64,000 nucleotides of DNA from a virus (Duplodnaviria > Caudoviricetes). The notes under the pieces were generated by a model. That model was not told the origin of the DNA. It did not search any database and saw only the letters and a list, made by a program, of their open reading frames with translations. This document shows, piece by piece, positions 7,500-52,689 of the stretch. The position numbers and the translations under genes were made by a program. Where the stretch lies: IMG/VR virus record IMGVR_UViG_3300033062_002302; one strand, 5' to 3'. Within the stretch, counting starts at the first letter, position 1. Every line of letters starts with the position of its first letter.

Positions 7500-7551
7500 C
7501 CTTAATAAGTGTGAATAATATCACATTTTGGTACAGAATCGGAGCTAACTT

Positions 7552-20319: not shown

Positions 20320-20322
20320 TTT

Positions 20323-22464: not shown

Positions 22465-22473
22465 AGGATCATT

Positions 22474-23331: not shown

Positions 23332-23332
23332 T

Positions 23333-34845: not shown

Positions 34846-37800
34846 ATGGTTGTAGTTAGATCTTTAAATGAAATTATATTAAGTCTAATTGACTTCTATC
34901 GAATTGCTCAGCCAAATTTAGATACTAAGCCAGCAACCGTAGCTCGGGATCTTTTAATTGATGCGCCTTCTAATCAGCTCGCTCTTCTTTATGATCAAAT
35001 CTCTCAAGTCTCAACTCAGCAATCATTACAGCTAGTTACAGGATCTGACCTAGATAAATTAGCCAAAAATTTTGGTATTACTCGCAAATCAGCTACGGCT
35101 TCCTCTGGAGTTGCTTTAATTACTTTTAGTTCAATTCCTGCAACGATTGGGATTGGGCGCGGTGACATTGTAACTGCGGCTAATGGAATTTCGTATTCTG
35201 TTGTTAATGGCATTTCTGTAAGTCCAACCAACATTAATTTTTATCGTTCTACTGCAACGAAATTTAGAAATGATTTAGATTTCGTTGGAATTACAGATCA
35301 ATTTGCAGTTGAGGTTACGGTTCAATCAACAACTCCTGGGACTCAAGGAAATATTGGCAAATATAGCTTGAACAGAACGACTACTCCTGGAGCGAGTAAT
35401 GTAACCAATACTAGTTCTTTCTTGGGTGGAAACAATCAAGAGGATGATGCGACTTTTCGAAATAGAGTCTTATCTGTCTTTAGTGGCTCCAGCATTGGAA
35501 CGGCGTTAGGATATCGAAATTTAGCTTTGTCTACGACAGGGGTAACAGATGCCTTTGTAGTTGAGCCAGGCAACCCGCTAATGACCCGCGATGGCTCGGT
35601 CGTCTCCGAGGATGCTTCAGGCAATTTGACGGTCATATCGGAAGGTACAGGTGGCAAGGTTGACATCGTTATCCTGGGAACAGATTTGGTTGAGAATACG
35701 GATAGCTTTATCTATAGAGATAAGAGCAATAAGAATGACCCAACAGATCCAAAGAATACGGTTGTTTTAGGTCAAATTACAGGCGATGAAAATAAAACAA
35801 TTAATAGAAGAAGAATTGACAATATTAAAGCCGGAACTCTTCCATCTCAACCTGTTGATTCTATTATTCAGGTTAGCGGCTCGGGGAGCGGGTCCAACTT
35901 TAAAGAACAAACAATTGATTCTTTTGGAAGAGTTTCTGGAAACTACAAGCTAGTTAAAGATACAGGTTCTTTTGCGGGTAGTCCATTTGGTTTTGATAGC
36001 TTTATTTGGACTTCAGACCGCATTTCTCTCTTTGAAGAAGATAGAATTAAGGGTAAATTTAACGGGCAAGATGCCGTGACATTTTCAGATGTTTCTGAAA
36101 TTCCAATTATTCAACAAAATATTTCGATTACAAATGAAAATAGCACGGTTTTAAATTCAGACCGTTCTCTTATTCAATTACTTCATTTTCCAGCCAAGAC
36201 GGCAACTCGTGTTTTCAATAGTACAACAGGTGAACGGTATACAGTTTTAAATCAAAATCCAAATGGCTCTGGAACAACCAATACTTCTGGGGTTATTAAA
36301 ATCTCAGGAAATACCCTTCCATCTCAGAGCGATGTTCTTCAAGTAGATTATACTTGGGTTCTAACTTTCGACCAGTTTACAGATTATGATGGTAGGTTCT
36401 TTACTGATAATTTAAGAGAAGTAACAGATAGCATTGATTGGGGTTATTCTAATTTAATTAGAGATGAAGAAGTTATGCTGTCTCAAAATGATGCTGGAAC
36501 TTATTATGTCGGAAATACGACCTTACCAATTGGAGCTATTTTAACAGTAAACTCTTATGAAGAAATTGGCGGCGTCGTTAGCCAAGTTACTTCTGGAACT
36601 TATACTGGACGTTTAAGCGTTGTCATTACTAATTTAATTAATACTACAACTTCAATAGATCATGTTTTATTTAGAAATACGAATGTAGAGTTATTTAAAA
36701 CTTCTGCTAATGATGGGTTATTTACTAATGCTAGTATTGTTGTTGGAATTGATATTCAATATACAACGACGATTATTTTACCCAGTGATACGAAGGCGTC
36801 GATTGGCGATACAGTTACAGTAATTAAAAATTCAAAAGATACTTTTAATGTTACTGGATCTGTTGGAAACTTTAATGGCAATCAAGTAACGGTTCCTTTA
36901 ACTAATTTTAGCACCACCCCAGATACATTGACGGCTAAAATAAATTACATTGCTAATGTTCAGGATATTATATCGACTGGCATTACAAGCATGCCAGTGA
37001 GCCGAGTTGGAAATGGCTTTGGGACTAATTCTAGCATTGGCTTTAATAATGTCAATATTGCAAACGTTGCCAGGCGAGAAAATCAAGTCGTTCAAAAAAA
37101 CACGAGCAATCAGTTCTATATTGAATTAAATGCGGCAAGCGTTGATGTTAGCTTATCCTCTCTTAAGATCTTGACGGTTATTAGACTTTCAGATATTAAA
37201 GAGCTTTGGAATCAAGATAATGCTGGAACTATTGAAATAGGAACTAGTGGAAATTATCAGTTAATCTTTACTGGATTTAACACTCCAGCTATTGCAGATA
37301 AAGTTTTAGTTATCTATTATGCTGAAGACGTTAAAAGATTTCAACCATTTACATTTTCTAATGATGTTTTTAGCCGAGATTTTGGAACTCTTCAATATGA
37401 TATTACGACTAATAAGTTTAGCGTTCCATTGCATACCTTTATAGCTCAAACCGGATTAAGCTTTGAAATCTTAGAAAAAAATAGCGATGATGTTATTGCT
37501 TCTGGCTCAGATGGTTATATCACGACTCCATTCTCAAATTTATCTAAAGCTAACTTCAGCAGTTTAACTGTTAATTTCGATACGCTGGTCGATGTTGATT
37601 TAAGTCCGATTGATATTACTTCAAAAAGAATTAGAATCTTTAATTCAATTAATATAAATAACAATAATTATTATGAAATTTCAAGCTATAATGAAAATAG
37701 CAATATTTTTGTTATATCAAATGATTTTAGTAAAATTAATAAGAAACAAATCAGTGTAATTAGAGTTCTTGATGGAAAAGAATTATGGTCTGATACTGGA

Positions 37801-38958
37801 ACAATTGACGTAGATAACAACCTTCTTTTGTTTACAAAGACATCTGCCGCTTTAGCGGGCGATGATGTTATGGTTTTAACTTATGACTATGAAACCATTA
37901 AACAATCTCCAACCAAGCTTATTTTGACGGTTGTTGACTCGACGGCAAATACTGGAACCATTTCGGTTAATGGAACGACAATTACGAAGGCGAAAGATGT
38001 TTTATTCTCGGCAACTTCAACTAGTTTGAAGCAAAATTTATTTGAGGCTATTAGAAAAGTATTAGGGCTGAATTCGAATTCGTCTATTCCGAGCACCATT
38101 AAATTAGTCAAGATTACAAAATTAGAAAGAGTTTCGACAGAAGGAGAAGTCGTTCTATTATCTCAAGCAAATTATGATTTGTTAGGATTAACAATTCAAG
38201 ATAATAGTTTTTACTCAGAAAATATTATTTCAAATACAGATTATAATAATTTAGAGTTTAGCCTTCCTTCAACTCAAAACAATGTTTTGAATTTAGACGC
38301 TCAGGTTAAAGCCGGAGATAAATTTAGAATTACCTTTTATTACTCTACGACTAATGATACTGAAAATGTTATTTTTACTAGAAATGGAACCTTATACACT
38401 AATAAAGCATTTGCTTTGATTGATAAAGTTTATATTTCTAGTGGATTTAATTCTTCTCAATCAACTAGAATTATATTAAGTAATTTCAATCAGCCTATTA
38501 CTGGTTCTAGGTATAAAGTTTTTTATGATTATATGGCTCCTAAGCAGAATGAAAGAATAATTATAAAATCAAATAACAATAGGTTGGTTTCAACCGTTAC
38601 TTTTAATGTAGAAACTAATAGACCAATAAATGCGGATGTTTTAATTAGACAAGCTAAACAAGTAGATATAGATGTTACTATGAATGTTGTTATTTCTGAT
38701 TCTTTTAAGAGTTCATCTGCTCTTGTCTTGCAAAATTTGAAAGATAAGCTAGTTACGGCAATTAATGCGAATGCATTAGGAACTGTTTTAGATTCATCTA
38801 GTTTAGTTAATGCGGCATTCTCAGTCGATGGGGTTGCAGGAGCTAGAATTATCTTCTTTAATAAGACAGGTTCTTTTGGTCAGGTTCTAAGTTTAACAGC
38901 TAAGGAAGATGAATATTTTTCAGCTAACTTAGTGACGGTAGCAGCAGAAACAAGATAA
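34846..38958 (+). CDS. Baseplate wedge protein, gpJ/gp6-like, with large central insertion
   Basis: TGSDLDKLAKNFGITRKSAT, GGNNQEDDATFRNRV, GKVDIVILG signatures; C-terminal SVDGVAGA. Confidence 0.85.
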   Translation: MVVVRSLNEIILSLIDFYRIAQPNLDTKPATVARDLLIDAPSNQLALLYDQISQVSTQQSLQLVTGSDLDKLAKNFGITRKSATASSGVALITFSSIPATIGIGRGDIVTAANGISYSVVNGISVSPTNINFYRSTATKFRNDLDFVGITDQFAVEVTVQSTTPGTQGNIGKYSLNRTTTPGASNVTNTSSFLGGNNQEDDATFRNRVLSVFSGSSIGTALGYRNLALSTTGVTDAFVVEPGNPLMTRDGSVVSEDASGNLTVISEGTGGKVDIVILGTDLVENTDSFIYRDKSNKNDPTDPKNTVVLGQITGDENKTINRRRIDNIKAGTLPSQPVDSIIQVSGSGSGSNFKEQTIDSFGRVSGNYKLVKDTGSFAGSPFGFDSFIWTSDRISLFEEDRIKGKFNGQDAVTFSDVSEIPIIQQNISITNENSTVLNSDRSLIQLLHFPAKTATRVFNSTTGERYTVLNQNPNGSGTTNTSGVIKISGNTLPSQSDVLQVDYTWVLTFDQFTDYDGRFFTDNLREVTDSIDWGYSNLIRDEEVMLSQNDAGTYYVGNTTLPIGAILTVNSYEEIGGVVSQVTSGTYTGRLSVVITNLINTTTSIDHVLFRNTNVELFKTSANDGLFTNASIVVGIDIQYTTTIILPSDTKASIGDTVTVIKNSKDTFNVTGSVGNFNGNQVTVPLTNFSTTPDTLTAKINYIANVQDIISTGITSMPVSRVGNGFGTNSSIGFNNVNIANVARRENQVVQKNTSNQFYIELNAASVDVSLSSLKILTVIRLSDIKELWNQDNAGTIEIGTSGNYQLIFTGFNTPAIADKVLVIYYAEDVKRFQPFTFSNDVFSRDFGTLQYDITTNKFSVPLHTFIAQTGLSFEILEKNSDDVIASGSDGYITTPFSNLSKANFSSLTVNFDTLVDVDLSPIDITSKRIRIFNSININNNNYYEISSYNENSNIFVISNDFSKINKKQISVIRVLDGKELWSDTGTIDVDNNLLLFTKTSAALAGDDVMVLTYDYETIKQSPTKLILTVVDSTANTGTISVNGTTITKAKDVLFSATSTSLKQNLFEAIRKVLGLNSNSSIPSTIKLVKITKLERVSTEGEVVLLSQANYDLLGLTIQDNSFYSENIISNTDYNNLEFSLPSTQNNVLNLDAQVKAGDKFRITFYYSTTNDTENVIFTRNGTLYTNKAFALIDKVYISSGFNSSQSTRIILSNFNQPITGSRYKVFYDYMAPKQNERIIIKSNNNRLVSTVTFNVETNRPINADVLIRQAKQVDIDVTMNVVISDSFKSSSALVLQNLKDKLVTAINANALGTVLDSSSLVNAAFSVDGVAGARIIFFNKTGSFGQVLSLTAKEDEYFSANLVTVAAETR

Positions 38959-41900
38959 TGGATAATCTAAGAATCATAGGAGTCGAAGTCATTGATAGCG
39001 TGACGCTCGTTGCTAAATTTAGCCATAAGCTAGATTCAAGCATCGGTGCATCTAATGTCACCATCACTTCGCAATTAGACAGTGTTCCTTCACCTAATGT
39101 TTTAAAGGCAGAAGTCAATAGCGAAACATTGGTGATTACTTGTCAGCCTATGACTCCGCAAGCGCCTTATTTTATTAAGTTTTTGTCATTGCCAGCCATT
39201 CCATTTAAATCTGTCAATGCAACAGCCATCATGTTAAATGATGACGTTAGCAATCAATATTATATTATTGGACCAATTGAAGCTGGTAATATAATTCAAG
39301 ATCTCTTAATAGACTACTTAAGAGAAACTCCTTTAAATGTAACAGATAATACGACTATTGTTAATAAAGTTCTTCAAAGCTATTCATTACTTTATTCTAA
39401 AGCTTTATATGATATCAAGCAATTAAAAAATGAAAATTATTTATCTTTTGATGTCTTGGATGAAGAAAAGACTCGTCAAGAAGGACCCTTTGATCGTCTC
39501 TTAGAAGAAGGCGCCTATCAAATAACAAGAGTTGGAAAAACTCCGACCGGATTCTCCGCTACTTTAGATTTTAATTTTGAAGAGTTCCCTGATTTTCCAG
39601 TTTCTCTTTTAAAAGAAGAAGTCTCAGAACTATTAAACATAGATTTTGAAGATAATGATAATACATTTAATATAAACACTTTTACTTTAAATGTGTCTAA
39701 GACAAATGTATCTAAGTTATTAAGTGTTATTTTTCATTATAATAACGGTCATTTAGATTACGAATATCCTATTGAAACATTGGGCTATCAAATAACCAAT
39801 TCTAAATATGATAAAGATTATGGTTTTAGCTATTTAGTGCTTTTAACAGATCAGTTTAGATTGAGTGAAGCTATTTTAAATGATCCTGATTTTTCAAATC
39901 AAAATATTTCATATGTAGAAGTAACTTATGAATATAGAAATTTGGGCAGAATTATTGATGAGGATTCCGTTACGGCTTCGACTATTTTAAGTGTTTCTAG
40001 GGAACCTTTACCTCCAATCATCAATATATTTAATTTAAAGCATGCGCCAATTGTTGATCAAAATGGAGATATTTATACAACTGGAGGCGCGACTTTTATT
40101 GATCCAAATGCTTATTTAACAACGGATAAGCATCCAGCATTTTTATATGAAATTGCATTTCGTCTTAATGCATTGCCTCGACGTCCTGGCGAATATTGCA
40201 TTGATTATGAAACTGGAACGGTTTATGTCTTTGGAGAAGATGCTGATAATGATGGAACGGGACCTCAACCACCACTCATTAGCTATGATTATCAATTTAC
40301 TTATGTCTCTCAGGTTGATTACGTTTATGACGCTTCCTCTGGAGATTTAGTTGCTTTACCTAATGGAAATTTAGTCTCTCAAGAAGGAGACATAACTTTT
40401 AATTATGAAGAAGTTTTAGTTCCTGATTTAGATTATCGAGCAACGGTTCATCAAGAAAATCTATCAGAAAGAATTGAAAATAAATTATTAGCCTTAAATG
40501 TTGTTAAAGCGGCTAATTCTCCAATTACTAATGTTTTTAGAATCTTTAATGAGACATCAGGGGAAATATACTCACCAATTCGTTGGAGTAATGATAAGAT
40601 ATATTTTTCTTATAATACCCCTCCTAATGTTTTACCTTTTACAGGAGAAAAAGTTTCTTTTAAAGATTCATTAAATGAAATATTATTCGTTAATCAAGAG
40701 CTAACAAATGGAAGTTCTATTCGAATCTTTAAATGTCTTTTATCTGATAATAATTTAGTTTCTGGCTCAGAAGATTGCTTGGCTTCATCAATTAATAATT
40801 CAATTAATTTATCTAATGATGATGTCTTTGTTAATCAAAAATGGTTTGACCCCTTTTTAACGGAAAGTCAAAACATTGATAAACTAGATGTGGTTGGTCA
40901 ATATAAAATTGATTATGCTAATGGAATTGTTTACGTTGCAGTTTCTCCAGGGCAATCTATTGAAATAGGAACGATTACTTATAAAACTAAACTAATTGAT
41001 CCTATTAATAGCCATGTCATTTCTGTAGATGATATTTATTATCAAACATCTATTTTAAATCCTAAAGATAAAACTTTTGAATACACTTCATTTGGAGAAG
41101 GATTTATTCAGCCATTAGATTTGGATGCTTCCGATGAAGGCTATCTAAATGAAACTGAGACTTCGCCTTATCAGGTTAATTCAACAAAGGTTGGAGCTTT
41201 TGTTGATGCTGTATTCGTTCCTGGCGTTTCTCAAAATATTAAGTTTATCCGTAGTCTTTATGAACTAAATGACCTTCAAAATAGTTATAGCCCCATTAAT
41301 TTTATGGAGGCTTGTACCTTTGATGGACGAGTCATTACAGTTTCTCCGATTGAAAAAACAGAATATAATATTGTTGAATATAATATTTCAGATGGTTATT
41401 TCATAACCATTAATTTGGCGCAACCATATTTATCTTCAAATATTGAATTTAATGTTTCTATTATTAGAAATTCAGATGCTCAAGAACTATGGGACAACTC
41501 TGGAATTGTTGTCGCTGGAGATCAAGTTAAGCTTAAATTATCTGGAGTCAACTCTCCAAATGCTGGAGATTCAGTTATTACAAGCTGGAGCTTGACGATT
41601 GATGATTTGTCTAGAATCATTGTTGATTATAATAAAGGAGATTTGTATATAGATTATACTTATCTTGCAGATGAAATTTTAATTAGCTATGAGTATGGGG
41701 AAAACCATATTGACTTTAGGCAATCAGAGTCAGTCTCTCCAGGTAGCACCTATTATGTAAGTTATAAGGTCGGAGCTTTACGCGATGCTTTGTTAAAGAA
41801 TTTTGGAAGCCTTGTTAATATTCCAGAGTTAAGCAATTTTGATATTAATCTTAATCGAGAAAGATATCGAGATTCATTGTCAGCCGCACTAGAGTCTTTT

Positions 41901-44900
41901 ATACAAGGTCCGACCATTACGGCAATTAAAAATATTGTTAATAAAATATCTCATATTGATCCTGAAATTGTCGAATCAGTCTTTCAAAATTGGTCATTAG
42001 GAACAAGCTTTTTAAATCCAAGAGGATTTGAAACGACCGGAAGCTTTGAGCTTTTGCCAGCCAAATATGGCAATGGAGCATTAATTAATGCCGAAGGTCA
42101 ATCTATTACATTACCAGTCTCTTCTAATTTAAGACTAGAAAAAGGGTCATTGGAATGTTGGGTCATTCCAGAATGGAATGGAATTGACAATGATGCGGAT
42201 ATAACATTCACTTTAACTAGAGATGGTTATCAGATTGAATCTAATTACATTTTTATTGGTTCAGCCGAATACCATCCTATTCTTAATTTAGATGGAACGT
42301 TTTCATTAAATAAATTAAGTAATGCGGCAGGCGCTCCTAATAAGAACAAAGACGGTATTTTCATTTATTATAATGATGATCCTGCTCAAGATTATAAGCG
42401 CTGGTATTTAGATGTTGTTGATGGGTATTCTTTTGGTCAAGTTGATGGCTATTCTACAACTTATTCTCTTAAAGTTAGTACGCCCAACGGAATGTTTTAT
42501 GATGTCAAGGCAATAGATAATCCTAAGCCTTCTAACATGAAGATTACGTCAGGAACAAGCAATATTTCAGTTTCTATTACGGATACAGCTCGATTCAATG
42601 AAGGCTTTACTTTCATCTCAGATCGAGAGCATTATCTCTTTGATTTTGGTGAAAAGAAAAATAAATGTCGGTTTTCTATTTACAAGGATCCAAGCGGATA
42701 TTTAAATTTTAGAATATTTGACCGAGATGGAGTCAGCTATTCTATCGGCGCAGATGTTTCTTCTTGGCAAGCTCATGAAAAGCACCATGTTGCAACCGCC
42801 TGGAAGTTAAACGACAAGCTTGAGAGAGATGAATTACATTTATTCATTGATGGTCAAGAAGTTCCAAATATTATTAGATATGGAACTAAAGTTAGCCCTT
42901 ATCTTCATGAAAGATATCGAACTATTAATCCAGAAGAGATAGCTGGATTTACTCCTAAGACTATTATTGGCTCTATTGATTTGGTAACTACTGCTGGAAG
43001 TCCAACTGTCACTTCTCTCATTAATTTTGACGCCTATGGAATACTAGCTGGCGACACTATTACGATTGATGAAGTAGGATTTAATCCATCTGGCTATTCA
43101 ATTTTAACAGTTGCAGGTCAAACTTTGACCTTGTCTAGCAACATGCCTCTATCTTTAGAAGACGCTAAGTTCTCAGTTAATAAAACAGATTTAACGCTGT
43201 TAACTGCGGTAGATATTTATCCTAATATTGCAGTTTCAACCATTTCATCTTTCTTAGATGGCTATGACTTAATAACTAACGACGGTTATGACGCCGTCAC
43301 TTCATCTTCTATTGACTTTGAATTATTTGATGTTATTCCAGGAGATCTATTACGAATCGATGATGGATACTATGAAAATCATTATACTATTTTAGATGTT
43401 GATGGATATACTTTAACTCTAAATGATGATATGCCAGCAACGAATTCTGGCTTAGATTTCTTTGTTTATCATAATGAAGATGTTGAAATTCCAGGACTAA
43501 GAGCCTTGAGACCATCATATTCTTTATCTAAAGATGGTTATTATAATAATGTTCTTTCACTTGAGAATGATGTTCAAGCTAATGATTTAATTTTAATTAA
43601 AACCTTAGGTTTAAATCATAAAAGAATTAAACAAAAATATTATGAATGGGGAGATGGATATAACAATGTTATTAAAACAACATTGCCCCCACCAATTTCA
43701 TTAAATGAAGTTAGTATTATTCATGGTATTCTATTAAATAAATTAGTGAATTCAAGCAATTCAACTCTCTTGGGAAATGACTTTACTTCATCTTCTTTCT
43801 CTGGAGAACAGCCATCTCTTTCAGATTCTGGAAGGACTCTAGCGGTTGATATTTCAAGTGGCAATCTAGATTTTAGCACTTCAGTTACCGTTACAATTAG
43901 TGGCGATGTTAACGGAAGTCCAACAAGCGAAGTATTAACTTTTACTCAAATAGAAAAAAAGAATACGTTAAATAAGTTTGAAACTATTACAGGTATTGTT
44001 GTTGCAGGTAAAGTTATTAATACTAATAGGTCTTATTTGGTTTTAAATGTTAAAGAGGCTTATTCTATTACTTACTCTGAAGGCAGCTCATTATATCCTG
44101 CCATTCGTTATTCTTATCAGTCTCGTGCAGGCATTGCTTTGACTGGACTTGGTGGAGCAACAGTTACAGACCTTGATGTCTTATTTAGCTCGACTGATAT
44201 TGGGAACTATCTTGTTATTGCAAGCCCAGGACCAGCTGCTGGAACTTATTTGATTTCTGGCGTTTCCGATGATAGAAACTCTATTAATATTGATGGGTAC
44301 ATTCCTCCTTTTAGCAATGGCATTTTTCAAATTTTAAATACAACTTCTTCTAGAAGCGGATTTCAAAATGGATTCTTCTTATTAGAAGAAGCTAATGACC
44401 CAGGAGTTCCATACCTATTAAAATCAGGAACTTATGAATTTGATTTTTATACCTGGACCAGTATTAAATTTAATCCAGTAAATTCATTAGCTTATGTTGG
44501 TTCGGATATTTTCAATAAAAACCATCTTAATGGAGTAATTGATGAATTAAAGATTAGTTCTAATCAATTGACAGATTTAAGAATTGGTGAAACCGCTCAA
44601 GTTAAACAAAACTACATTACTAAAGACTTCAATTCATTAAAAGAATTATCTTTTGATTCTAATACATTAGTTTTATCACACTTTGATTCATTTCCTTTTG
44701 TTAATGAAGCTGATTTTTATGTAATGTCAGAAGGAAAGAATTTTGTTCAGTCTGATGTTTCTGTTAATGATAATTTCTCTCAGAGTCTTGCAATTATTGA
44801 CAAGCCTTTTATCATTGATAATGATGGGGTCTTAGATACGCGCAAAGAAGGAACGATTGAATTTTGGGTTAATTCATTATATGATACTACGAACGATCCA

Positions 44901-46085
44901 ACTCATCGATTTTATTTTGATGCGGCAGGAATCAATTTAGAGACGGTCACGAGCCTTGATGATTCGACTCTTCAGATTTCAGGAAGAGCGGCTCAAGTTG
45001 TTTCAGTTAAACTAAAAAATGGCGATCAAAGAATTGATTACTTTGCTGGTGGAGCTATTGAAACTTCAACCGAGGGCGCTATTGCTGAAACAACAATGAG
45101 TATAACGGATAGTACCGTTAGCACTTCTAAGAAGATTCTTCAAGTAGTGACAGTTAAAATTGTTGGAGACCCAACCGGAACAGATTATTTTGCAGGCGGT
45201 GGAGTTAGTCAGGATGGTCGAACTATTTACCTAGCCAGAACTTTGCCTCAGTCTAGTTTGAATCTAATTGTTGTTTATAAATCAGCTGAATCAGGATCTA
45301 AAACCTTTAATAGTCAAGTTATTAGATTAAAGAAAAGACTACCAAATCAAAATAGCCAGGTTGTTGTAACTTATATCCCTAGCGGTCTTCATGGAGATAG
45401 AATGTCTATCTATAAAGATGAGTCTGGATATGTTAATTTCAACGTTAGAGCCAATGACTTCGATTATCAGGTCCGAGCCCCCATTTTCTGGTCAGCTAAT
45501 TCCTGGCATAGAATTAAAGCGACTTACTCTATAAATGGAGGAAGAAGCAACGATCAGCTACATCTTTTCATTGATGGGTATGAGTATAAAAACATTCTTT
45601 TTGGAACCGGACTCCTATTTGGAGACCCATATGTTGTTGGCTCTTCTTACTCTGGAACCTCGGCTATGATGGTTGATATTAAGTTTAAAGATGTTCCAAC
45701 GGAATTGTTTATAGGAACTGAATTTAATGGTAAAAATGCTGCTAATGCCTTAATTGATAATTTAAGAATTAGCAATATCGCTCGTCCCTTGTTCGCTCCA
45801 TTTGGAGAATCAATAGATGTCAATTATTCTAGCAATTTAGACATTGTTTTTCCAGTAACAGAAGATTTATACACGACCTATCTGCTTGATTTTAATACCA
45901 TTTTGGCTAAAAATGACGATTTCGTTATGCTAAAAAATAAAAATTCAGGAATATTTGATTTTGAAGTTAATGTTTTTGATTCATTCGATTTAATCAAAGA
46001 TAATAATAGAGTCAAAGAGATATTAGAGGTCTTATTAAAAGCCTTAAAACCTGCTAATAGTCGTATTTTTATTAAGTATGAATAA
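38958..46085 (+). CDS. Giant baseplate wedge protein (gpI/gp7-like) with two LamG-like domains
   Basis: YRDSLSAALESFIQGPTITAIK and terminal LKALKPANSRIFI motifs; GSLECWV/GTIEFWV, LHLFIDG x2, IDELKIS/IDNLRIS LamG elements. Confidence 0.7.
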   Translation: MDNLRIIGVEVIDSVTLVAKFSHKLDSSIGASNVTITSQLDSVPSPNVLKAEVNSETLVITCQPMTPQAPYFIKFLSLPAIPFKSVNATAIMLNDDVSNQYYIIGPIEAGNIIQDLLIDYLRETPLNVTDNTTIVNKVLQSYSLLYSKALYDIKQLKNENYLSFDVLDEEKTRQEGPFDRLLEEGAYQITRVGKTPTGFSATLDFNFEEFPDFPVSLLKEEVSELLNIDFEDNDNTFNINTFTLNVSKTNVSKLLSVIFHYNNGHLDYEYPIETLGYQITNSKYDKDYGFSYLVLLTDQFRLSEAILNDPDFSNQNISYVEVTYEYRNLGRIIDEDSVTASTILSVSREPLPPIINIFNLKHAPIVDQNGDIYTTGGATFIDPNAYLTTDKHPAFLYEIAFRLNALPRRPGEYCIDYETGTVYVFGEDADNDGTGPQPPLISYDYQFTYVSQVDYVYDASSGDLVALPNGNLVSQEGDITFNYEEVLVPDLDYRATVHQENLSERIENKLLALNVVKAANSPITNVFRIFNETSGEIYSPIRWSNDKIYFSYNTPPNVLPFTGEKVSFKDSLNEILFVNQELTNGSSIRIFKCLLSDNNLVSGSEDCLASSINNSINLSNDDVFVNQKWFDPFLTESQNIDKLDVVGQYKIDYANGIVYVAVSPGQSIEIGTITYKTKLIDPINSHVISVDDIYYQTSILNPKDKTFEYTSFGEGFIQPLDLDASDEGYLNETETSPYQVNSTKVGAFVDAVFVPGVSQNIKFIRSLYELNDLQNSYSPINFMEACTFDGRVITVSPIEKTEYNIVEYNISDGYFITINLAQPYLSSNIEFNVSIIRNSDAQELWDNSGIVVAGDQVKLKLSGVNSPNAGDSVITSWSLTIDDLSRIIVDYNKGDLYIDYTYLADEILISYEYGENHIDFRQSESVSPGSTYYVSYKVGALRDALLKNFGSLVNIPELSNFDINLNRERYRDSLSAALESFIQGPTITAIKNIVNKISHIDPEIVESVFQNWSLGTSFLNPRGFETTGSFELLPAKYGNGALINAEGQSITLPVSSNLRLEKGSLECWVIPEWNGIDNDADITFTLTRDGYQIESNYIFIGSAEYHPILNLDGTFSLNKLSNAAGAPNKNKDGIFIYYNDDPAQDYKRWYLDVVDGYSFGQVDGYSTTYSLKVSTPNGMFYDVKAIDNPKPSNMKITSGTSNISVSITDTARFNEGFTFISDREHYLFDFGEKKNKCRFSIYKDPSGYLNFRIFDRDGVSYSIGADVSSWQAHEKHHVATAWKLNDKLERDELHLFIDGQEVPNIIRYGTKVSPYLHERYRTINPEEIAGFTPKTIIGSIDLVTTAGSPTVTSLINFDAYGILAGDTITIDEVGFNPSGYSILTVAGQTLTLSSNMPLSLEDAKFSVNKTDLTLLTAVDIYPNIAVSTISSFLDGYDLITNDGYDAVTSSSIDFELFDVIPGDLLRIDDGYYENHYTILDVDGYTLTLNDDMPATNSGLDFFVYHNEDVEIPGLRALRPSYSLSKDGYYNNVLSLENDVQANDLILIKTLGLNHKRIKQKYYEWGDGYNNVIKTTLPPPISLNEVSIIHGILLNKLVNSSNSTLLGNDFTSSSFSGEQPSLSDSGRTLAVDISSGNLDFSTSVTVTISGDVNGSPTSEVLTFTQIEKKNTLNKFETITGIVVAGKVINTNRSYLVLNVKEAYSITYSEGSSLYPAIRYSYQSRAGIALTGLGGATVTDLDVLFSSTDIGNYLVIASPGPAAGTYLISGVSDDRNSINIDGYIPPFSNGIFQILNTTSSRSGFQNGFFLLEEANDPGVPYLLKSGTYEFDFYTWTSIKFNPVNSLAYVGSDIFNKNHLNGVIDELKISSNQLTDLRIGETAQVKQNYITKDFNSLKELSFDSNTLVLSHFDSFPFVNEADFYVMSEGKNFVQSDVSVNDNFSQSLAIIDKPFIIDNDGVLDTRKEGTIEFWVNSLYDTTNDPTHRFYFDAAGINLETVTSLDDSTLQISGRAAQVVSVKLKNGDQRIDYFAGGAIETSTEGAIAETTMSITDSTVSTSKKILQVVTVKIVGDPTGTDYFAGGGVSQDGRTIYLARTLPQSSLNLIVVYKSAESGSKTFNSQVIRLKKRLPNQNSQVVVTYIPSGLHGDRMSIYKDESGYVNFNVRANDFDYQVRAPIFWSANSWHRIKATYSINGGRSNDQLHLFIDGYEYKNILFGTGLLFGDPYVVGSSYSGTSAMMVDIKFKDVPTELFIGTEFNGKNAANALIDNLRISNIARPLFAPFGESIDVNYSSNLDIVFPVTEDLYTTYLLDFNTILAKNDDFVMLKNKNSGIFDFEVNVFDSFDLIKDNNRVKEILEVLLKALKPANSRIFIKYE

Positions 46086-46118: not shown

Positions 46119-49100
46119 ATGACTAAAAGAAGCCCTATTTCTGGTTTGCAGAATCTATATTCCGATGCGGAGCAGTTGGATGATTCTGATTTAACGGCAG
46201 AACAAAGTTATAATAATAGCATTCAAAATGCCATTATTAATAATCATGTTGGGATAGGTGTCTTACCAGAAGTTTTAAATCAAAACATCTTATTCGATTC
46301 TTTATTGGTTTCTGGCTTATTAGATGGAACTAATATTGCCCCGCAGGCTCAGCCCACCGATTCTAATCAGGGGAATCAGCTTGAAATTGAATTAAAAAAT
46401 TCAAAAGCGGCAGGTAAGAGAACCGTTAAAATAGCTATTATTGGTTTAGATTTTGAAAATAATCTTCAATATGATACTTTGGTTTTTAAAGCCAATGAAG
46501 TTCAAATAACCAAAAAGCATTATACGAATATACTTGCTATTTTCTTTAATGATTTTATTGGAACGACAATCCAATCTTTTAATTTGGGTGGTCAAGTTAT
46601 TATTAAAGAGGCTAAGCCATTTAGTCTTTCTAGAGACCCAATTATGGCAGCTCAAGATATCGAGCCCAATCTTTTTTGGCGAGATTTCTTTGTTAGCTCT
46701 GTTTCATCTTTAACAACTCTATTAACTAATTCGCTGCCACTTTATAATATTGATAATTTAAATATCAATACTGGATATAAAGAAAATAAAGTTTTAGAAG
46801 AAAATGATGTTACTACTCAAATTGGTCAAAAATTTCTAGCAACGACCAATAATATTCAAAAAATTTCATTATTATTATCTGTTCAAAATACCAATCCTGG
46901 CTTTGAAACGGACTTGGCTTGGGAAGGCGAGCTAGTTGTTAGCATTTTTCCTCTTCAATCGACCATTCAATGCTCGACTGATATTGTTCCAAATTTAGCT
47001 ATTGATTTTTCTCCATCTAATATTCCATTGGCTCAATTAAGCTTTGATTATGATAGTCTTCAAAGTCTTGGAACGACTCTTGATGGGAACCCTCAGCCAG
47101 TAGACTTTGTTTTTAGTAATACTCAAGTTGGAACTGGCAATGCTATTGTTCCAGGAAATTATTACGCTGTAACTTTAAAACGCTCTGGGTCAGCTAATAA
47201 ATGTGATATTTTAATAACGGCAGGAAGTAATATTAGCTCTGATTCTAGAGCAACAATGTTTACTGGAAGTGTTTGGGTTGATTTGCCAGACGATGATCTT
47301 TGGCATCGAGTCTTTACTGACGCAGCTAAGATTTCAGATGGTCAGGCATATGAAACTGGGCACGGAATTATTATTCCTAAAATTAATTTAGATTCAGAAA
47401 CGAATGCTCAAATTGATTATTCATTAGATGGAATTCAGTTTACTGGAACAGAATTATATACTGGCGTTGTTGCCGCCGAATTAGAGCAAAGCGTCCCAAT
47501 TCAGGATCAAAGAACCGGCAACCCGGTTAATTCTCGTCAGCAGTTCGTTCCCAAAGTTAAACTATTAAACCCAATAGATTTATCAAATCTTTCCAAGACG
47601 ACAGAGCCTTTTGTTGTTGGTCTTGTTGCAGATAAGAATAAAAAATCTTTTGAAGCTTCAAGCTCTGTTCTATCAGCCGGACTTCATTCTTGGACTTTCG
47701 TTAAAAACGAATTACAATTAAAAATCATTGATGATAGCACAGATGGATATCGATATGATTTAAATGTTAATGCTTTGGTAAACAATTTAGTAAATGGTGA
47801 TTTTACCAATGCTAAACTTATTCCAAACATTTCTGAGCCAAATACTTTTTATCGTGTAGCCAAAGCCGAATTATGCTCTATGATTTATGGAGATATTAAT
47901 GGTGATGGTGTTGTTGACGATGCTGATTTAGATCTTTATAATTTACTCTTAGGAATGGACCTTAATGTCTCTCCTCCGGCAATAAGCTCCATCTCAACAG
48001 ATGGATATGTTACGACTTATACAAATGGGTACCCATTCTATGCAGATCCTTTTGTTAATGACTTTACCGTTACTTTCCAGCTTGTTGATCCTGCAACTAA
48101 TTTAGTTGTCGCATCTGGAACTGACGGCATTTTAGTTGTTAATCCAAATGATGGTAGTTTAGCTACTTTTCAGAGCGCTTCAACTAATTTCTCAGCTATT
48201 ACCAATCTAATTAATTTAAAATTGGTAATTAGACTATCAACGAATGAATGTAATAATGGCGGTATTGAGATTACGAGCCTTAATACTTCTTCAAATTATA
48301 TTGTTAATTTAAGAAAAGTTCTATTAGATAGCGACAAAATATCTCAGATTTTAAGAGCAGATATCGATGGTGATTTTGAGATTACTGCAAATGACGGTTA
48401 TTATTTACAGAATTATATTTTAAAAGCTCCTCCATTTCCAGCGACAACTTCACCTGGGAATAAAATTGGAACATCATTTAATGTTCTTAAATTAAAGTTA
48501 GATCCATTCACCTATCAAGATGGGTATTTTACTCGGAATGACGATTTCTATCCAACCATCTCTAATCGTGGGACTGTTTTACATCCTATTCAAGATTTGT
48601 ATTTGGAAGATACTGGATTAGAAAATCATGACTTTAAAAATAACCCTATTACTTTTAATCTTGTTAAACAATTAACTTGGGAAGAAAGATTAATTTCAGT
48701 TGCAAGTAATGCTAGATTTGTTCCGACCATTTTTAGTTCTACATCTGGTCACGTTCATAACAGCTGTGAAATAGACGGTATTGTTTGTGATATTTATCCT
48801 CAGGGTCCAGAATTAGATCCAGGGACGATTAATGCTTTCGTTCCTAATAATCTTATTATTGGTGATGGTGGAGAGTTACAAAGACCAGATGGAAATCCAT
48901 ATAAAGTAGACTTTGAAGTTGGAACGATTGTCTTAGAAATTCCAGATGGAATTTTCGGAGAAGAGCGAACCTTAAATGTTTTTGATGACTTCGTTGCAGA
49001 TTATACTGGAAAAGGAATCACAAGGCTAGGCTTCCCGGCGCTTCGTTTTGCTGACTGTTCATTAGTTGAACAAGAGGCTTTACTTAATAATCAAGTTAGA

Positions 49101-49877
49101 TTCTCTGTTGCAGTTCAATCTTTTAGCCCAAATACTAATGGAACAGACTCAGATGGTTATTCAGGGGTTATCGTTGATGGTAAAATCGGCGTCTCCATGG
49201 ATTACGCAACTGGATTGTTAAGACTTAACTTCACGAACCTTTATGAAGATTCCGTTCTTCAGACTTTAAATACTAAAGTTCAAATTAACGTTTACCTTAA
49301 AAAAGGTGGGTTTAATAACTCTCCATTGTTTGTAGATTCGACCAAGGTTCAAAACTTATTAGAATTAATCAGCGTTTTCAATGAAAATAGCCCATTAGAA
49401 GGTTCAACCAATCACACTCAAGTTACTCAGCAAACGACGACAGAATGGAAAGATACGAGTTCTACTGATTATAGCGCTTCTGCTCCAAAGGCGTCTAAAC
49501 GCGAGAGGCGCCGTCAGTTTACGACCACTACTTCAACAGCCAATCAGGTTATTGAAGATGGCTATACGTTTGGCAATGTAGATTTCAGCTTATCAGATGA
49601 GGCGATTACGAGAGTCACCGCCTTGCTATTAGTTAAAAAATCCGGGACTGCATTTGGCGGTACCATTGAAATGAAGGCGGATTATATTAGAGAGGGAGCT
49701 GGACCCGTTTTAATTGGCGCCCCGACCATTACTTATAATTTGACTGGATCGACCTTGGACGGAACGACAGCTGATTTTAATATCAATGGAAATAAGATTG
49801 AGATTAGAGTTTCTCCTGAAAGCGCTGATATTTTGAATTGGCGAATCTTCCGGACTCAAAATGAAGGAATAGACTAA
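46119..49877 (+). CDS. Tail fibre/baseplate-attached protein with dockerin-like Ca-binding loops
   Basis: Follows wedge genes; YGDINGDGVVDDADL and RADIDGDFEITAND motifs. Confidence 0.55.
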   Translation: MTKRSPISGLQNLYSDAEQLDDSDLTAEQSYNNSIQNAIINNHVGIGVLPEVLNQNILFDSLLVSGLLDGTNIAPQAQPTDSNQGNQLEIELKNSKAAGKRTVKIAIIGLDFENNLQYDTLVFKANEVQITKKHYTNILAIFFNDFIGTTIQSFNLGGQVIIKEAKPFSLSRDPIMAAQDIEPNLFWRDFFVSSVSSLTTLLTNSLPLYNIDNLNINTGYKENKVLEENDVTTQIGQKFLATTNNIQKISLLLSVQNTNPGFETDLAWEGELVVSIFPLQSTIQCSTDIVPNLAIDFSPSNIPLAQLSFDYDSLQSLGTTLDGNPQPVDFVFSNTQVGTGNAIVPGNYYAVTLKRSGSANKCDILITAGSNISSDSRATMFTGSVWVDLPDDDLWHRVFTDAAKISDGQAYETGHGIIIPKINLDSETNAQIDYSLDGIQFTGTELYTGVVAAELEQSVPIQDQRTGNPVNSRQQFVPKVKLLNPIDLSNLSKTTEPFVVGLVADKNKKSFEASSSVLSAGLHSWTFVKNELQLKIIDDSTDGYRYDLNVNALVNNLVNGDFTNAKLIPNISEPNTFYRVAKAELCSMIYGDINGDGVVDDADLDLYNLLLGMDLNVSPPAISSISTDGYVTTYTNGYPFYADPFVNDFTVTFQLVDPATNLVVASGTDGILVVNPNDGSLATFQSASTNFSAITNLINLKLVIRLSTNECNNGGIEITSLNTSSNYIVNLRKVLLDSDKISQILRADIDGDFEITANDGYYLQNYILKAPPFPATTSPGNKIGTSFNVLKLKLDPFTYQDGYFTRNDDFYPTISNRGTVLHPIQDLYLEDTGLENHDFKNNPITFNLVKQLTWEERLISVASNARFVPTIFSSTSGHVHNSCEIDGIVCDIYPQGPELDPGTINAFVPNNLIIGDGGELQRPDGNPYKVDFEVGTIVLEIPDGIFGEERTLNVFDDFVADYTGKGITRLGFPALRFADCSLVEQEALLNNQVRFSVAVQSFSPNTNGTDSDGYSGVIVDGKIGVSMDYATGLLRLNFTNLYEDSVLQTLNTKVQINVYLKKGGFNNSPLFVDSTKVQNLLELISVFNENSPLEGSTNHTQVTQQTTTEWKDTSSTDYSASAPKASKRERRRQFTTTTSTANQVIEDGYTFGNVDFSLSDEAITRVTALLLVKKSGTAFGGTIEMKADYIREGAGPVLIGAPTITYNLTGSTLDGTTADFNINGNKIEIRVSPESADILNWRIFRTQNEGID

Positions 49878-49901: not shown

Positions 49902-51023
49902 ATGAAGATCTTAATACATCAATTTCTTGGCAAAAATCATAGTTGGAGCGCCGTAGGGTGGGGAACGGCTAATGCTTTAATTAACCAAGGACATGAAGTT
50001 GAATTATTTTCAACGGATGGAATTGAGCATATTCCAAATAATTTAAGAAAGCATGTGATTGGGCATGTCGAAGAGAATAAGCCTGGCAAAATCTTTGGAA
50101 GATTACCGGGAACTTATGATTGTCAGATTAGTTATACTGCTATGCGAAACTTTCAGAAGTATTTAAGCTTTGGAAATAAAAATAGATTTGGTATTTGGAC
50201 CTATGAATGGAATGGAAAAAATGTTCTTCCTTCTGGTTTTGCCAAAGCTTATAAGAATTGCGATTACTTATGTGCTCCATCTCAATTCTCTAAAGATATT
50301 TTTATCAATTCAGGAATTCCTGGAGATAAAGTTCATGTCATTCCTCATGGAATTGGCTCTGAATTTTCTGGAGAATCTAAAATTGATCTTAAAACAAATA
50401 AGAAATTTAAAATATTAGCTAATATAGCTCAAAACCATATAAGGAAGAATATAAATGGTTTATTAGAAGCATATGGAAAAGCATTTAATAAAAATGATGA
50501 TGTTATTTTAATATTAAAATCAAAATTCAAACCTGTTAAATATGGGTTTGAAGTGTCTCTTCAAGAAATTGTGAGTTCATTCAAGAAGAAATATCCCGAC
50601 CATGCTGAGTTAAAAATTTTTGAACAATTTGTTCCGGACATCTCCTCCTTATATAGGAGTGTGGATACCGTCTTCTCGCTTTCTCACTGCGAAGGATTTT
50701 TAATGCCTGGGCTTGAATCATTGGCTTCTGGAAAAATTGTCATTGCTCCTAATTGGGGCGGTCAGGTTGATTTTTTAAATGATTCCAATGCTCTTCTTGT
50801 TTCCGGGAAAGAGGCACGAGCCAACCCGGCAAGCATGTACTGGGAATCAAAACAAAATGCAATTTGGTTTGTCCCGGATATAGAGGATGCAGCCAGCAAA
50901 TTAAGGTACGCTTACGATAATTTTATCTCTTTAAATGAGAGCGTCGAAAGCCAAAGAGAAGCTATATTAAAAAAATATAGTTGGGAATCCATCACAACTC
51001 AAATGTTGAATTTAACCAAATGA
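49902..51023 (+). CDS. Glycosyltransferase, GT4 (GT-B fold)
   Basis: APSQFSKD, VIPHG, RKNINGLL, EGFLMPGLESLASG (Ex7E), YSWE. Confidence 0.9.
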   Translation: MKILIHQFLGKNHSWSAVGWGTANALINQGHEVELFSTDGIEHIPNNLRKHVIGHVEENKPGKIFGRLPGTYDCQISYTAMRNFQKYLSFGNKNRFGIWTYEWNGKNVLPSGFAKAYKNCDYLCAPSQFSKDIFINSGIPGDKVHVIPHGIGSEFSGESKIDLKTNKKFKILANIAQNHIRKNINGLLEAYGKAFNKNDDVILILKSKFKPVKYGFEVSLQEIVSSFKKKYPDHAELKIFEQFVPDISSLYRSVDTVFSLSHCEGFLMPGLESLASGKIVIAPNWGGQVDFLNDSNALLVSGKEARANPASMYWESKQNAIWFVPDIEDAASKLRYAYDNFISLNESVESQREAILKKYSWESITTQMLNLTK

Positions 51024-51712
51024 TTTATGATTTAAGCATCGTTATTCCAGTCTTCAATAATTGGAGCTATACTAAAAATTGCATTAGTAATTTATTGAAA
51101 TTGCCTGAATCATTTGAAATCATTATTGTTGATAATGCCAGCTCTGATTTAACGAAAACCGAACTTTCTAAATTTGAAAGAGTTAAACATATTAGAAATG
51201 AAACTAATTTTGGCTTCGGAAAAGCAGTAAGTCAGGGCGTTCAAGCAGCGCAATCCAATCAGATTATGATTTTAAACAATGACATTAAATTTGGAAATGT
51301 CTTTCAGGATTGGTTTTTATCATTACCTCAAATTATCAAAGATAATAATAAGTTAATTGGACCAACGGCTGGATATGTGGATCCAGAGAATGAATTTAGT
51401 TTTGTTTATGAAACTTCTAATAAAGAAGATAAAATTAATTATATGAGTGGTTGGTGTTTGTCTGCTAATCGAGAGACCTGGGATAAATTAGAGACTGGAG
51501 ATGGTCCTTTTGATAGTAAGACTTTCTTTCTTTATTTTGAAGATACTGATTTATCATTTCGAGCCAAATCTCTTAACATTGATTTTATGCTGATTGATAC
51601 TCCTTTAAAACATATTGGAAAGCAGACTTCTAAGTTATTGAATATTAGCAAACATTATTCTGAATCAAAAGTTAAATTTTTAAATAAATGGAATAATAAG
51701 TATCCATTTTGA
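51020..51712 (+). CDS. Glycosyltransferase, GT2
   Basis: LSIVIPVFN, IIVDNASSD, NFGFGKA, LNND, YFEDTDLSFR; ATG at 51020 overlaps upstream TGA. Confidence 0.9.
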   Translation: MIYDLSIVIPVFNNWSYTKNCISNLLKLPESFEIIIVDNASSDLTKTELSKFERVKHIRNETNFGFGKAVSQGVQAAQSNQIMILNNDIKFGNVFQDWFLSLPQIIKDNNKLIGPTAGYVDPENEFSFVYETSNKEDKINYMSGWCLSANRETWDKLETGDGPFDSKTFFLYFEDTDLSFRAKSLNIDFMLIDTPLKHIGKQTSKLLNISKHYSESKVKFLNKWNNKYPF

Positions 51713-51723
51713 AAGATTATTAA

Positions 51724-52689
51724 ATGTCATTATCAACCAAAATTATTATGTTTGTTCTTGCAGTCCTTCTGTTAATAGGGGGAGGTTTAATTGTTTTCAA
51801 GCAATTTGAGATTGCTCGACGTCAAGAGGCAATTGAAAAAGAAATGGTTGGTCAGAAAGAGTTGGCTGACGGAATTACTCGGGCTCTTGCTCAATATGCA
51901 ACCAAGCAGGACATTAATAATCTCGCTAAAGAAAATAATGTCAACATGAAAGTTATCCAAAATGACTTGGATAAGTTAAATGCTTCAATTATGGCAATCA
52001 ACGTTGTAACCTCGAAGAGTCAAGGGCAAGTTGTTAAAGGAGCTGGGTCAACTAATACGGTTCCTGGGACTGATGTTCCCCCGTTAGCTTTAACTTACCC
52101 AGATCCTTATAAATATCAACAAGATACTCAAGTCATTAAGCTTAATGAAAGCTTTGGAAACGTTAAAGTTCCAATAGGAGAAGTTTCTTTCTCGGCTTGG
52201 AAAGAAAAGCCATGGGATTATAATATTCCACCACGGGAATATAAGATGGTTACGGTTCTAGGAATGGATGAACAACAGCGTCAATATGCTTATAATAAAT
52301 TTACGATCAACGATCAAGAAGTTAAAATAGCCAATAGCACTTTTAAGCAAGAGTACCCGGAAGGAAAATTTAGTTTTTTCAATCCCAGGCTGTACATAGG
52401 AATGGATGCTGGTATAAACTTGAGGAGCGTTCGGGGCGAAGCCGTCCCAAATGTTAGCCTTCAACTAATGAGTTATGGAAAATATAAGAATAATCCCGAT
52501 TTATCCATTCTTCAAGTTGGCGCAGGCTATGGAATTGATGCCAAGCAAGTTTCGGGCTCATTAACGCCAATTATGTATAATGTTGGGCAACATATTCCTT
52601 TAATGAATAATTTATATATTGGACCGTCTGTTCAAGTTAATGCATCGGGAGATGTTGGGATTATGGGAAGCGCTAAGGTGGGGTTATAA
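51724..52689 (+). CDS. Membrane-anchored protein: N-terminal TM, coiled coil, C-terminal amphipathic beta strands
   Basis: IIMFVLAVLLLIGGGLIVF TM; helical Q/K/N-rich segment; Gly-rich alternating strands ending GIMGSAKVGL. Confidence 0.5.
   Translation: MSLSTKIIMFVLAVLLLIGGGLIVFKQFEIARRQEAIEKEMVGQKELADGITRALAQYATKQDINNLAKENNVNMKVIQNDLDKLNASIMAINVVTSKSQGQVVKGAGSTNTVPGTDVPPLALTYPDPYKYQQDTQVIKLNESFGNVKVPIGEVSFSAWKEKPWDYNIPPREYKMVTVLGMDEQQRQYAYNKFTINDQEVKIANSTFKQEYPEGKFSFFNPRLYIGMDAGINLRSVRGEAVPNVSLQLMSYGKYKNNPDLSILQVGAGYGIDAKQVSGSLTPIMYNVGQHIPLMNNLYIGPSVQVNASGDVGIMGSAKVGL

Follow-up and report, generated by a model that had tools for sequence, protein, structure and literature searches.

The tripeptide Asp-Gly-Tyr (DGY) is very probably a tag added under selection to a duplicated β-barrel of a giant phage tail protein. 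The stretch of DNA analysed here (the window; 64,000 nucleotides of IMG/VR record IMGVR_UViG_3300033062_002302, Duplodnaviria; Caudoviricetes) derives from one virus genome of 239,327 bp with 34.5% GC. Its positions 42960–43440 lie in frame within an open reading frame (ORF) at 38958–46085 on the + strand that encodes P0001, a protein of 2375 amino acids (aa), and specify two tandem barrel copies, of which copy 2 bears four DGY and copy 1 none. The analysis shows homology of the copies, their modelled fold, enrichment and specificity of the motif, its turnover among relatives, its restriction to the outer tail and the conserved adjacency of glycosyltransferase (GT) genes. Taken as a whole, our reading joins the duplicated barrels and the selected tag to glycosylation by the GT module, and in this full form we hold it tentatively, as somewhat short of probable. 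New in this analysis are a within-protein control across three paralogous barrels and a quantified turnover of the motif.

The initial annotation, made from the sequence alone, had taken the two segments for homologues, and our comparisons bear this out. The peptides that it quoted span residues ~1336–1397 and ~1432–1493. BLASTP aligned residues 1320–1410 with residues 1411–1520 at 28/71 identities (39%, E=1e-12), and profile–profile comparison with hhalign of the copy 1 and copy 2 sub-alignments from 114 orthologues gave a probability of 99.4% (E=2e-21, 71 columns). An AlphaFold2 model of residues 1305–1535, built with the orthologue alignment, consists of two similar all-β domains (predicted local distance difference test, pLDDT, 88.9; predicted TM-score, pTM, 0.75), each of them a six-stranded β-barrel of ~75 residues; the strands of the first barrel core (B1) fall at model residues 33–109. 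Because blastn found no DNA-level similarity of the repeat units to each other or to the rest of the 239-kb genome, and because all orthologues carry both barrel copies, the duplication is old. A diverged third barrel (B3) lies ~290 residues beyond the pair. Residues 1721–1792 match copy 2 by profile (hhalign, E=3.4e-4), and an AlphaFold2 model of residues 1620–1830 contains a six-stranded barrel at ~1718–1798 (pLDDT 91.4). A hidden Markov model (HMM) of both copies found no further copy among all proteins of the window, B3 having surfaced via profile–profile and structural comparison only, and a candidate fourth barrel at residues 777–833 was not significant (hhalign, E=0.3).

In an exhaustive structural scan, B1 and the second barrel core (B2) superpose on phage decoration barrels with Z scores of 7–8.3 and root mean square deviations (rmsd) of 2.0–2.6 Å over ~70 residues. 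The matches include a tail tube (9n71, Z 8.3), the tailspikes 24qj, 6e0v and 7w1c, residues 490–564 of lambda gpJ (8iyk) and the P22 coat I-domain. B3 hits the same PDB chains over the same ranges, the three barrels giving Z 5.2–8.5 and rmsd ~2–3 Å; Z scores of 5–8.5 in such a scan can reflect merely a common arrangement and are no proof of kinship. B1 and B2 match a generic reductase/EF-Tu-type barrel too, and a Foldseek search of the barrels against PDB gave nothing at E≤1e-3. The Mystique tube (9n71), lambda gpJ 490–567 (8iyk), Solidus gp83 (24qj), Phi92 gp150 (6e0v) and the P22 coat (2m5s) have small six-stranded barrels on which those of P0001 superpose, and the latter are likewise add-on domains within a large tail protein; the P0001 barrels differ in having no sequence-family match. 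Searching 1.84 billion representatives with a profile of the pair yielded 259 proteins. The barrel also recurs two to nine times in many large proteins (1300–3700 aa; e.g. P0164 and P0172) outside the orthologue family, and it seems to be a repeat domain not described before, one that has no Pfam or PHROG model.

The four DGY of copy 2 begin at residues 1434, 1442, 1469 and 1482, and copy 1 has none, exactly as first claimed. The copy 1 residues aligned to these sites are GSI, AGS, E(V)GF and AGQ, so that Gly is common to three of the four. When the 77 residues of copy 2 were shuffled 200,000 times, the maximum was three DGY, reached twice, and four never occurred. That the motifs occupy separate turns is true of three sites, which lie in hairpin turns or loops; site 1 lies inside the first strand as assigned by DSSP. 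We followed each site through a MAFFT alignment of 114 full-length orthologues, counting changes by Fitch parsimony on a FastTree tree. Site 1 is DGY in 13 of the 114 and otherwise TGT, TGN, SGS or SGN (at least nine changes on the tree), while site 2 is DGY in 11 and otherwise SGS, AGS or NGS (at least seven). For site 3 the number is ~7–8 (at least six changes), and for site 4 it is four, with three more shifted by one residue and the remainder reading SGN, NGN or SGH (at least four). Among the closest relatives the sites are distributed as a mosaic, with 2 and 4 in P0002, 1 in P0003, 2 in P0004, and 1 and a shifted 4 in P0008. Four DGY in copy 2 are found in this phage only, and 74 of the 114 orthologues have none there; the fold therefore does not need the motif, as the initial annotation had supposed.

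Across the family there are 63 DGY in copy 2 against 8 in copy 1. Copy 1 is also the more conserved of the two, with a pairwise identity of 60% vs 44% for copy 2, and stronger constraint on copy 1 partly explains the asymmetry. Only 5% of sequences have Asp before the invariant G-Y of copy 1 (residue 1379), the background level; not every xGY is under DGY pressure. The turn of the first hairpin is DGY in 1, 11 and 38 of the 114 sequences for barrels 1, 2 and 3, respectively; in this phage B3 has a single DGY, at residue 1779, and relatives frequently carry DGY at its first-hairpin turn, residue 1732. The initial annotation had offered the barrel pair as an internal control for the sequon hypothesis. 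The pair shows that DGY is an add-on; that it is a glycosylation sequon does not follow from this.

Turnover of the motif extends to the whole protein. We collected 120 full-length orthologues (~2380 aa, 47–66% identity) from metagenomic contigs of up to ~490 kb, and all 120 exceed the ~0.5 DGY expected, with 3–21 each. In the 114 aligned sequences, 871 DGY are spread over 120 columns with at least 354 parsimony changes (gains or losses). Near-invariant DGY occur at residues 1156 and 2207 only, both of them the 'DG' of LamG-type strands; DGY is common at residues 1090 and 2235 and sporadic in the other columns. With columns that carry DGY in at least 30% of sequences excluded, 383 DGY remain against 58 expected. 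Tyr follows D-G in 26% of cases and any other x-G in 4.8% (odds ratio 7). Turnover was found at the four sites of copy 2 as elsewhere, and of the two outcomes that the initial annotation had named as speaking against it, non-homology of the segments and invariant DGY, neither was seen. By comparison, in 54 non-orthologous proteins that contain this barrel the count is 30 DGY vs 19 expected, near background. The coupling of Asp to Tyr, the specificity of the motif and the near-background counts in other phages indicate selection rather than drift, by inference from sequence patterns. The claim that DGY was gained or lost under selection stands in this form, and for the contrast between the copies it shares the explanation with the constraint on copy 1.

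Sporadic DGY are confined to residues ~800–1810, though residues 1–800 are equally variable, which suggests that this middle region is accessible and outward-facing. Copy 2 sites without DGY read [S/T]-G-[S/T/N] or AGS, that is, small polar residues, and exposed turns are therefore suggested; these substitution patterns likewise suggest that the DGY tyrosines are exposed. DGY load is a lineage property: the number in copy 2 correlates with that in the rest of the P0001 orthologue (rho 0.52), and the count in P0001 orthologues with that in the neighbouring 1252-aa protein (rho 0.46), both correlations ignoring kinship. Many sporadic DGY in relatives fall within lineage-specific insertions, noted near columns 1156–1164.

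Within this genome the motif is enriched in a restricted set of proteins. The ORFs of the window contain 38 DGY against 3.4 expected from composition and 7.8 from a first-order Markov model, making it the top-enriched tripeptide, and P0001 has 12 against 0.63 expected. Of the nucleotide pattern GAYGGNTAY there are 41 instances on the plus strand and none on the minus strand; 38 are in frame, with mixed codons, and the signal therefore lies at the protein level. Enrichment in the structural block (the tail-module proteins) is 13.7x for DGY, 2.0x for DGF, 1.6x for EGY, 1.5x for NGY, 1.1x for YGD and 0.7x for DYG, with GYD at or near background. Elsewhere in the genome, 17 DGY compare with 9.1 expected. 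DSY (3 vs 3.8 expected) and DTY (0 vs 3.0) are at or below expectation. The carriers are neck/collar proteins, the sheath, the baseplate rim and the fibre-like protein; the sheath DGY, at residues 147 and 416, lie outside the sheath-family match at 739–913. The tube-like protein, a 1622-aa protein, the inner baseplate, the head-side genes and a 2572-aa collagen-like protein have none or one. No strong preference for an extended sequon emerged from 776 unique contexts at positions −6 to +6, which show a mild depletion of K, E and P and neighbouring D, G and Y that come from clustered tags. Such clusters include DGYSFGQVDGY (P0001 residues 1155–1165) and, in ORFs 1786 and 7552, DGYDGY and DGYGDGY; a DGY-x5-DGY spacing is seen among them. 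The phrase 'DGY motif' was not found in the literature searched.

A gap of 24 nucleotides (nt) separates the last tail gene from the GT module, which shares its strand and has overlapping or closely spaced genes; judged by its layout alone, the module would be co-expressed with the structural genes. It comprises a GT4, two GT2 and an NDP-sugar 4,6-dehydratase, the gene content expected of a phage virion glycosylation system beside structural genes. Across IMG/VR and metagenome loci the order is conserved as Baseplate_J, giant protein, fibre-like protein, GT4, (GT2), 321-aa protein, (GT2), dehydratase and tubulin. Of the 103 distinct loci whose fibre-like gene is complete, 93 have GT4 downstream and 8 end too soon to be judged, so that 93 of the 95 informative ones carry it there. 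Only one locus, L072, cleanly lacks GT4, and its three baseplate proteins (4,614 residues in sum) have 0/1/0 DGY; L073, in which no GT lies within 2 kb downstream, also has 0/1/0. L120 was rejected as a second GT4-less locus: an open-ended ORF of at least 1367 aa (7221–11321) directly follows its fibre-like gene, where others have GT4, and fills the downstream space. A wider metagenome scan brought no further clean locus without GT; a search with P0155 found nothing, and one with P0150 gave two new loci, one of them ending right after the fibre gene. An upstream 1082-aa GT fusion (glyco-fibre cluster), considered as a reader of the tag, was not found in the records of five relatives, including a DGY-rich one of 200 kb; with these records 10–47% complete, its absence from them counts for little. 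At best, the pattern is that GT4 is necessary and insufficient for DGY, on one or two GT-less loci.

The lineage of L051 and L052, which has all four module genes, carries nearly no DGY in its giant and fibre-like proteins (2 and 0) and is rich in them in the neck/collar. On the rebuilt 78-kb L052 contig, 32 DGY against 4.6 expected are concentrated in neck proteins (7, 3 and 8). The loss thus concerns the baseplate only, so that tag load can differ between virion parts and not just between genomes, and the lineage was rejected as a counter-example with GT present and DGY absent, since its neck proteins keep the motif. An FGE-sulfatase-family gene lies between the fibre-like gene and GT4 in the DGY-rich relative L083 (21009–21845), and this genome has a homologue, 36% identical, at window-equivalent 97513–98331, outside the window.

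We infer who reads the tag, its exposure and its modification, and propose the following scheme. The ancient barrel duplicates would sit in the outward-facing middle (~800–1810) of a jumbo phage's giant baseplate protein and be similar to the decoration or insertion barrels at the periphery of tail proteins in other phages. DGY, lying outside the needs of the fold, would be a clade-wide tag that selection has time and again put in and taken out at exposed positions, mostly Gly turns, and that replaces small polar [S/T]-G-[S/T/N]. In this phage barrel 2 has gathered four tags, and barrel 1, which is more conserved and presumably less accessible, none. The tag would serve as a short recognition signal (sequon) for a phage-encoded enzyme that, in late expression, links a glycan to the exposed Tyr; as this reader, the GT4-led module directly after the tail genes is the best candidate. 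In its specific form, in which DGY is an undescribed glycosylation sequon, a cytoplasmic GT4 starts the glycan on exposed Tyr, the outer tail is sugar-coated clade-wide and tag positions shift as in the glycan shields of animal viruses, the proposal is possible and we regard it with some doubt.

Were the scheme true, the barrel pair would be a natural substrate and a negative control in one polypeptide. If an enzyme reads DGY, it would be a new short sequon, and probably the first tyrosine-directed one known in viruses. It would further point to sugar-coated tails throughout a large and widespread group of uncultured jumbo phages, which would bear on adsorption, on the avoidance of sticking or recognition and on the engineering of tags onto proteins. 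Residues 1305–1535, with four tags vs none in the two copies, are modelled confidently on their own, and the scheme is testable in this one fragment without culturing the phage.

Several points weigh against glycosylation by the module. Some GT4-positive loci are poor in DGY, with 2–4 in the baseplate-module proteins, of which two or three were counted: L071 has 0/1/2, L080 (GT4 and GT2) 1/2/0 and L051/L052 (all four genes) 2/2/0. Loci that lack both GT2 have a median of 8 DGY vs 11, a difference that is not significant (p=0.13), and loss of the pair does not do away with DGY, as one of these loci, L060, has 11 and 9; the clean GT-less sample is effectively one locus. The correlations given above (rho 0.52 and 0.46) and the p-values ignore phylogeny, and if phages have recombined with one another, fewer of the gains may be independent than counted. 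The head proteins are without DGY, unlike what a general virion glycan coat would give, and one of the four DGY of copy 2 lies within a strand. Phage GTs often modify DNA (PMC12619734). Finally, any glycan on the virion is a prediction, the phage being uncultured.

The evidence for a selected, exposed, lineage-loaded motif would equally fit an unmodified surface binding motif, either a docking site for an accessory or decoration protein or a small Asp/Tyr sugar patch engaged in weak multivalent adhesion to polysaccharide of the host. The tight clusters DGYDGY, DGYGDGY and DGY-x5-DGY suit multivalent binding, and specificity for the tail with absence from head proteins is what an adsorption role would give. 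A binding motif should, however, tolerate other orders of its residues, and YGD, DYG, GYD, DGF and EGY are all at or near background; it also has no candidate partner and leaves the conserved GT module without a target. We consider this explanation unlikely, though worth keeping in view.

D-G is a classical tight-turn pair, and DGY might be a structural device that has no reader, a D-G type I' hairpin turn with an aromatic residue that stabilises exposed hairpins, favoured by the environment of this clade. Three of the four copy 2 sites and most hot spots are indeed hairpin turns with a pre-existing Gly, and the near-invariant DGY at residues 1156 and 2207 are LamG-core 'DG' positions. Yet a purely structural need would hardly be confined to one clade and to certain proteins and regions, with the same barrel elsewhere near background, with no DGY in residues 1–800 and with none or one in proteins of the inner tail and head. 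Neither DGF nor NGY is enriched, Tyr replaces Ser, Thr or Asn rather than a hydrophobic residue, and the Asp frequency of 5% at the invariant G-Y 1379 points the same way. This explanation is improbable.

Tyrosine sulfation sites generally have acidic and turn-forming residues beside the Tyr. With the motif sequon-like and the GT link weak, DGY might instead direct a different change to Tyr or Asp, such as sulfation, phosphorylation, nucleotidylation, hydroxylation or cross-linking, made by an enzyme from another part of the genome, and the FGE-sulfatase-family gene between the fibre gene and GT4 in L083, with its homologue here, is in keeping with this. No candidate enzyme can be named for it, however, and the universal neighbours are glycosyltransferases and a sugar dehydratase, so that we give it an equally small chance. 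Composition, chance, a targeted mutator or recombination acting without selection, helped by the very Asp-rich copy 2 and by phage mosaicism that spreads segments, is most improbable, as composition-keeping shuffles never reach four DGY and the motif appears in 120 columns as well as in unrelated proteins, its codons mixed. A diversity-generating retroelement was rejected as well: blastn (word size 7) of both repeat units against the 239-kb genome gave self matches and no template repeat of at least ~100 bp, the best other match being 28 nt long (E=0.055).

Known glycosylation sequons include N-x-S/T, D/E-x-N-x-S/T and the Bacteroidetes motif D-(S/T)-(A/I/L/V/M/T), with that of the chlorovirus PBCV-1 protein Vp54 being atypical. 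DGY resembles these systems in being short, ordered and probably surface-enriched, in its drifting positions at kept density and in its acidic residue, which two of them share. Unlike them, it contains no Asn, Ser or Thr, so that the acceptor would be Tyr (or Asp), and phage tails assemble in the cytoplasm whereas the host systems are periplasmic. DGY does not fit the Bacteroidetes O-glycosylation sequon, having Gly at position 2. GtfA/GtfB (GT4) start the cytoplasmic O-glycosylation of serine-rich repeat adhesins and further GTs extend the glycan. Initiation by a GT4 and extension by GT2 enzymes involve the same kind of genes as here, a likeness at the family level; the GtfA/GtfB acceptors are Ser/Thr in long repeats, unlike DGY.

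Glycosylation of mycobacteriophage virions by phage GTs has been reported (Freeman et al. 2023, as cited in PMC12619734). As that citing account presents the system, the proposal is that soluble phage GTs act in the cytoplasm and decorate virion proteins of the same phage, as would happen here. Its glycans are given there as lying at the C-termini of capsid and tail-tube subunits, whereas DGY is an internal tripeptide in turns of the outer tail, with head and tube without it; the mycobacteriophage system is, moreover, reported on virions, whereas the present one is known from genes and motif alone. Tyrosine O-glycosylation is documented in bacterial S-layers, in Paenibacillus alvei SpaA and in Thermoanaerobacter (PMC2943079). 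An O-linked glycan on Tyr of a prokaryotic surface protein, as shown there, matches the proposed acceptor here; the S-layer glycan differs in being transferred en bloc outside the membrane by an oligosaccharyltransferase, at few sites, and PMC2943079 names no DGY-type consensus.

Family matches to Pfam and PHROG, together with the layout, identify the genes around P0001 as a contractile-tail module (Table 1). P0001 lies immediately 3' of the gp25-like and Baseplate_J/gp6-like genes, which is the slot of gp7/gpI. Similarity to the gp7/gpI family was not found: P0001 has no match in PHROG and in Pfam none besides Laminin_G_3 (PF13385; residues 2132–2235, 39.5 bits with a cut-off of 27.6, E=7.9e-10), which falls outside the tandem barrels. 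Searches of the region and of the whole of P0001 against 50,697 phage records with blastn and tblastn gave no match and no cultured relative. The 1252-aa protein, for which no Pfam or PHROG family match was found, is likely a fibre or receptor-binding protein.

Table 1. Features of the tail and sugar-gene region; positions are those of the window and residues those of P0001 unless a feature is itself another protein.
Feature	Position	Strand	Basis or remark
Sheath	13933-16683		Family match at residues 739-913
Tube-like protein	17433-18053		
gp25-like baseplate protein	34376-34807		phrog_2669
Baseplate_J/gp6-like wedge protein, 1370 aa	34846-38958	+	PF04865 E=4.7e-18; phrog_6 E=6.4e-37
P0001, giant baseplate-periphery protein, 2375 aa, 12 DGY	38958-46085	+	ORF translation; position after Baseplate_J/gp6-like gene
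Repeat unit 1, residues 1328-1423	42939-43226	+	BLASTP, hhalign, AlphaFold2; no DGY
Barrel core B1, residues 1335-1409	42960-43184	+	
Repeat unit 2, residues 1424-1520	43227-43517	+	BLASTP, hhalign, AlphaFold2; four DGY
Barrel core B2, residues 1430-1506	43245-43475	+	
DGY site 1, residues 1434-1436	43257-43265	+	Within first strand of B2 (DSSP)
DGY site 2, residues 1442-1444	43281-43289	+	Turn of first hairpin of B2
DGY site 3, residues 1469-1471	43362-43370	+	Loop after third strand of B2; alignment indel here
DGY site 4, residues 1482-1484	43401-43409	+	Tight hairpin turn of B2
Barrel B3, diverged third copy, residues ~1718-1798	44109-44351	+	hhalign, AlphaFold2, structural scan
Fibre-like tail protein, 1252 aa, 6 DGY	46119-49877	+	Position kept in all loci
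GT4	49902-51023	+	Pfam
GT2	50981-51712	+	Pfam
321-aa protein within GT module	51724-52689	+	
Second GT2	52689-53522	+	Pfam
NDP-sugar 4,6-dehydratase with ~360-aa intein-like insertion, 699 aa	53519-55618	+	Pfam GDP_Man_Dehyd/Epimerase
TubZ/PhuZ-like tubulin	55645-56976		Tubulin and TubZ-like_C domains; directly after sugar module

Within the GT module, the 321-aa protein gave no lead in Pfam, PHROG, PDB or Atlas. The dehydratase is split into halves at residues 4–128 and 499–686, and an Intein_splicing match between them (141–496) is sub-threshold (31.3 bits vs a cut-off of 35.8). Because the gene is uninterrupted in relatives, where the protein measures ~320 aa, the insertion is probably an intein with a homing endonuclease. 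The TubZ/PhuZ-like tubulin that follows is kept at the same place in many relatives.

A new lineage of large aquatic phages with predicted Bacteroidota hosts and four core glycosyltransferase families, the 'Moraphages', has been described, in which the tape-measure gene was not identified (PMC12619734). By description rather than by sequence, these may be the same clade as this phage or a related one. In the window, six ORFs at 19217–30144 (250, 105, 713, 285, 1622 and 648 aa) have no PHROG match and zero DGY; they probably encode inner tail, tape-measure or hub proteins. Endonuclease VII/HNH-like genes stand amid the tail module at 16692–17396 and 18072–19103, and on the L052 contig (G001) such genes are found elsewhere, at 21318–22067, 36059–37060 and 37859–38458. 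These interspersed genes are likely mobile homing endonucleases.

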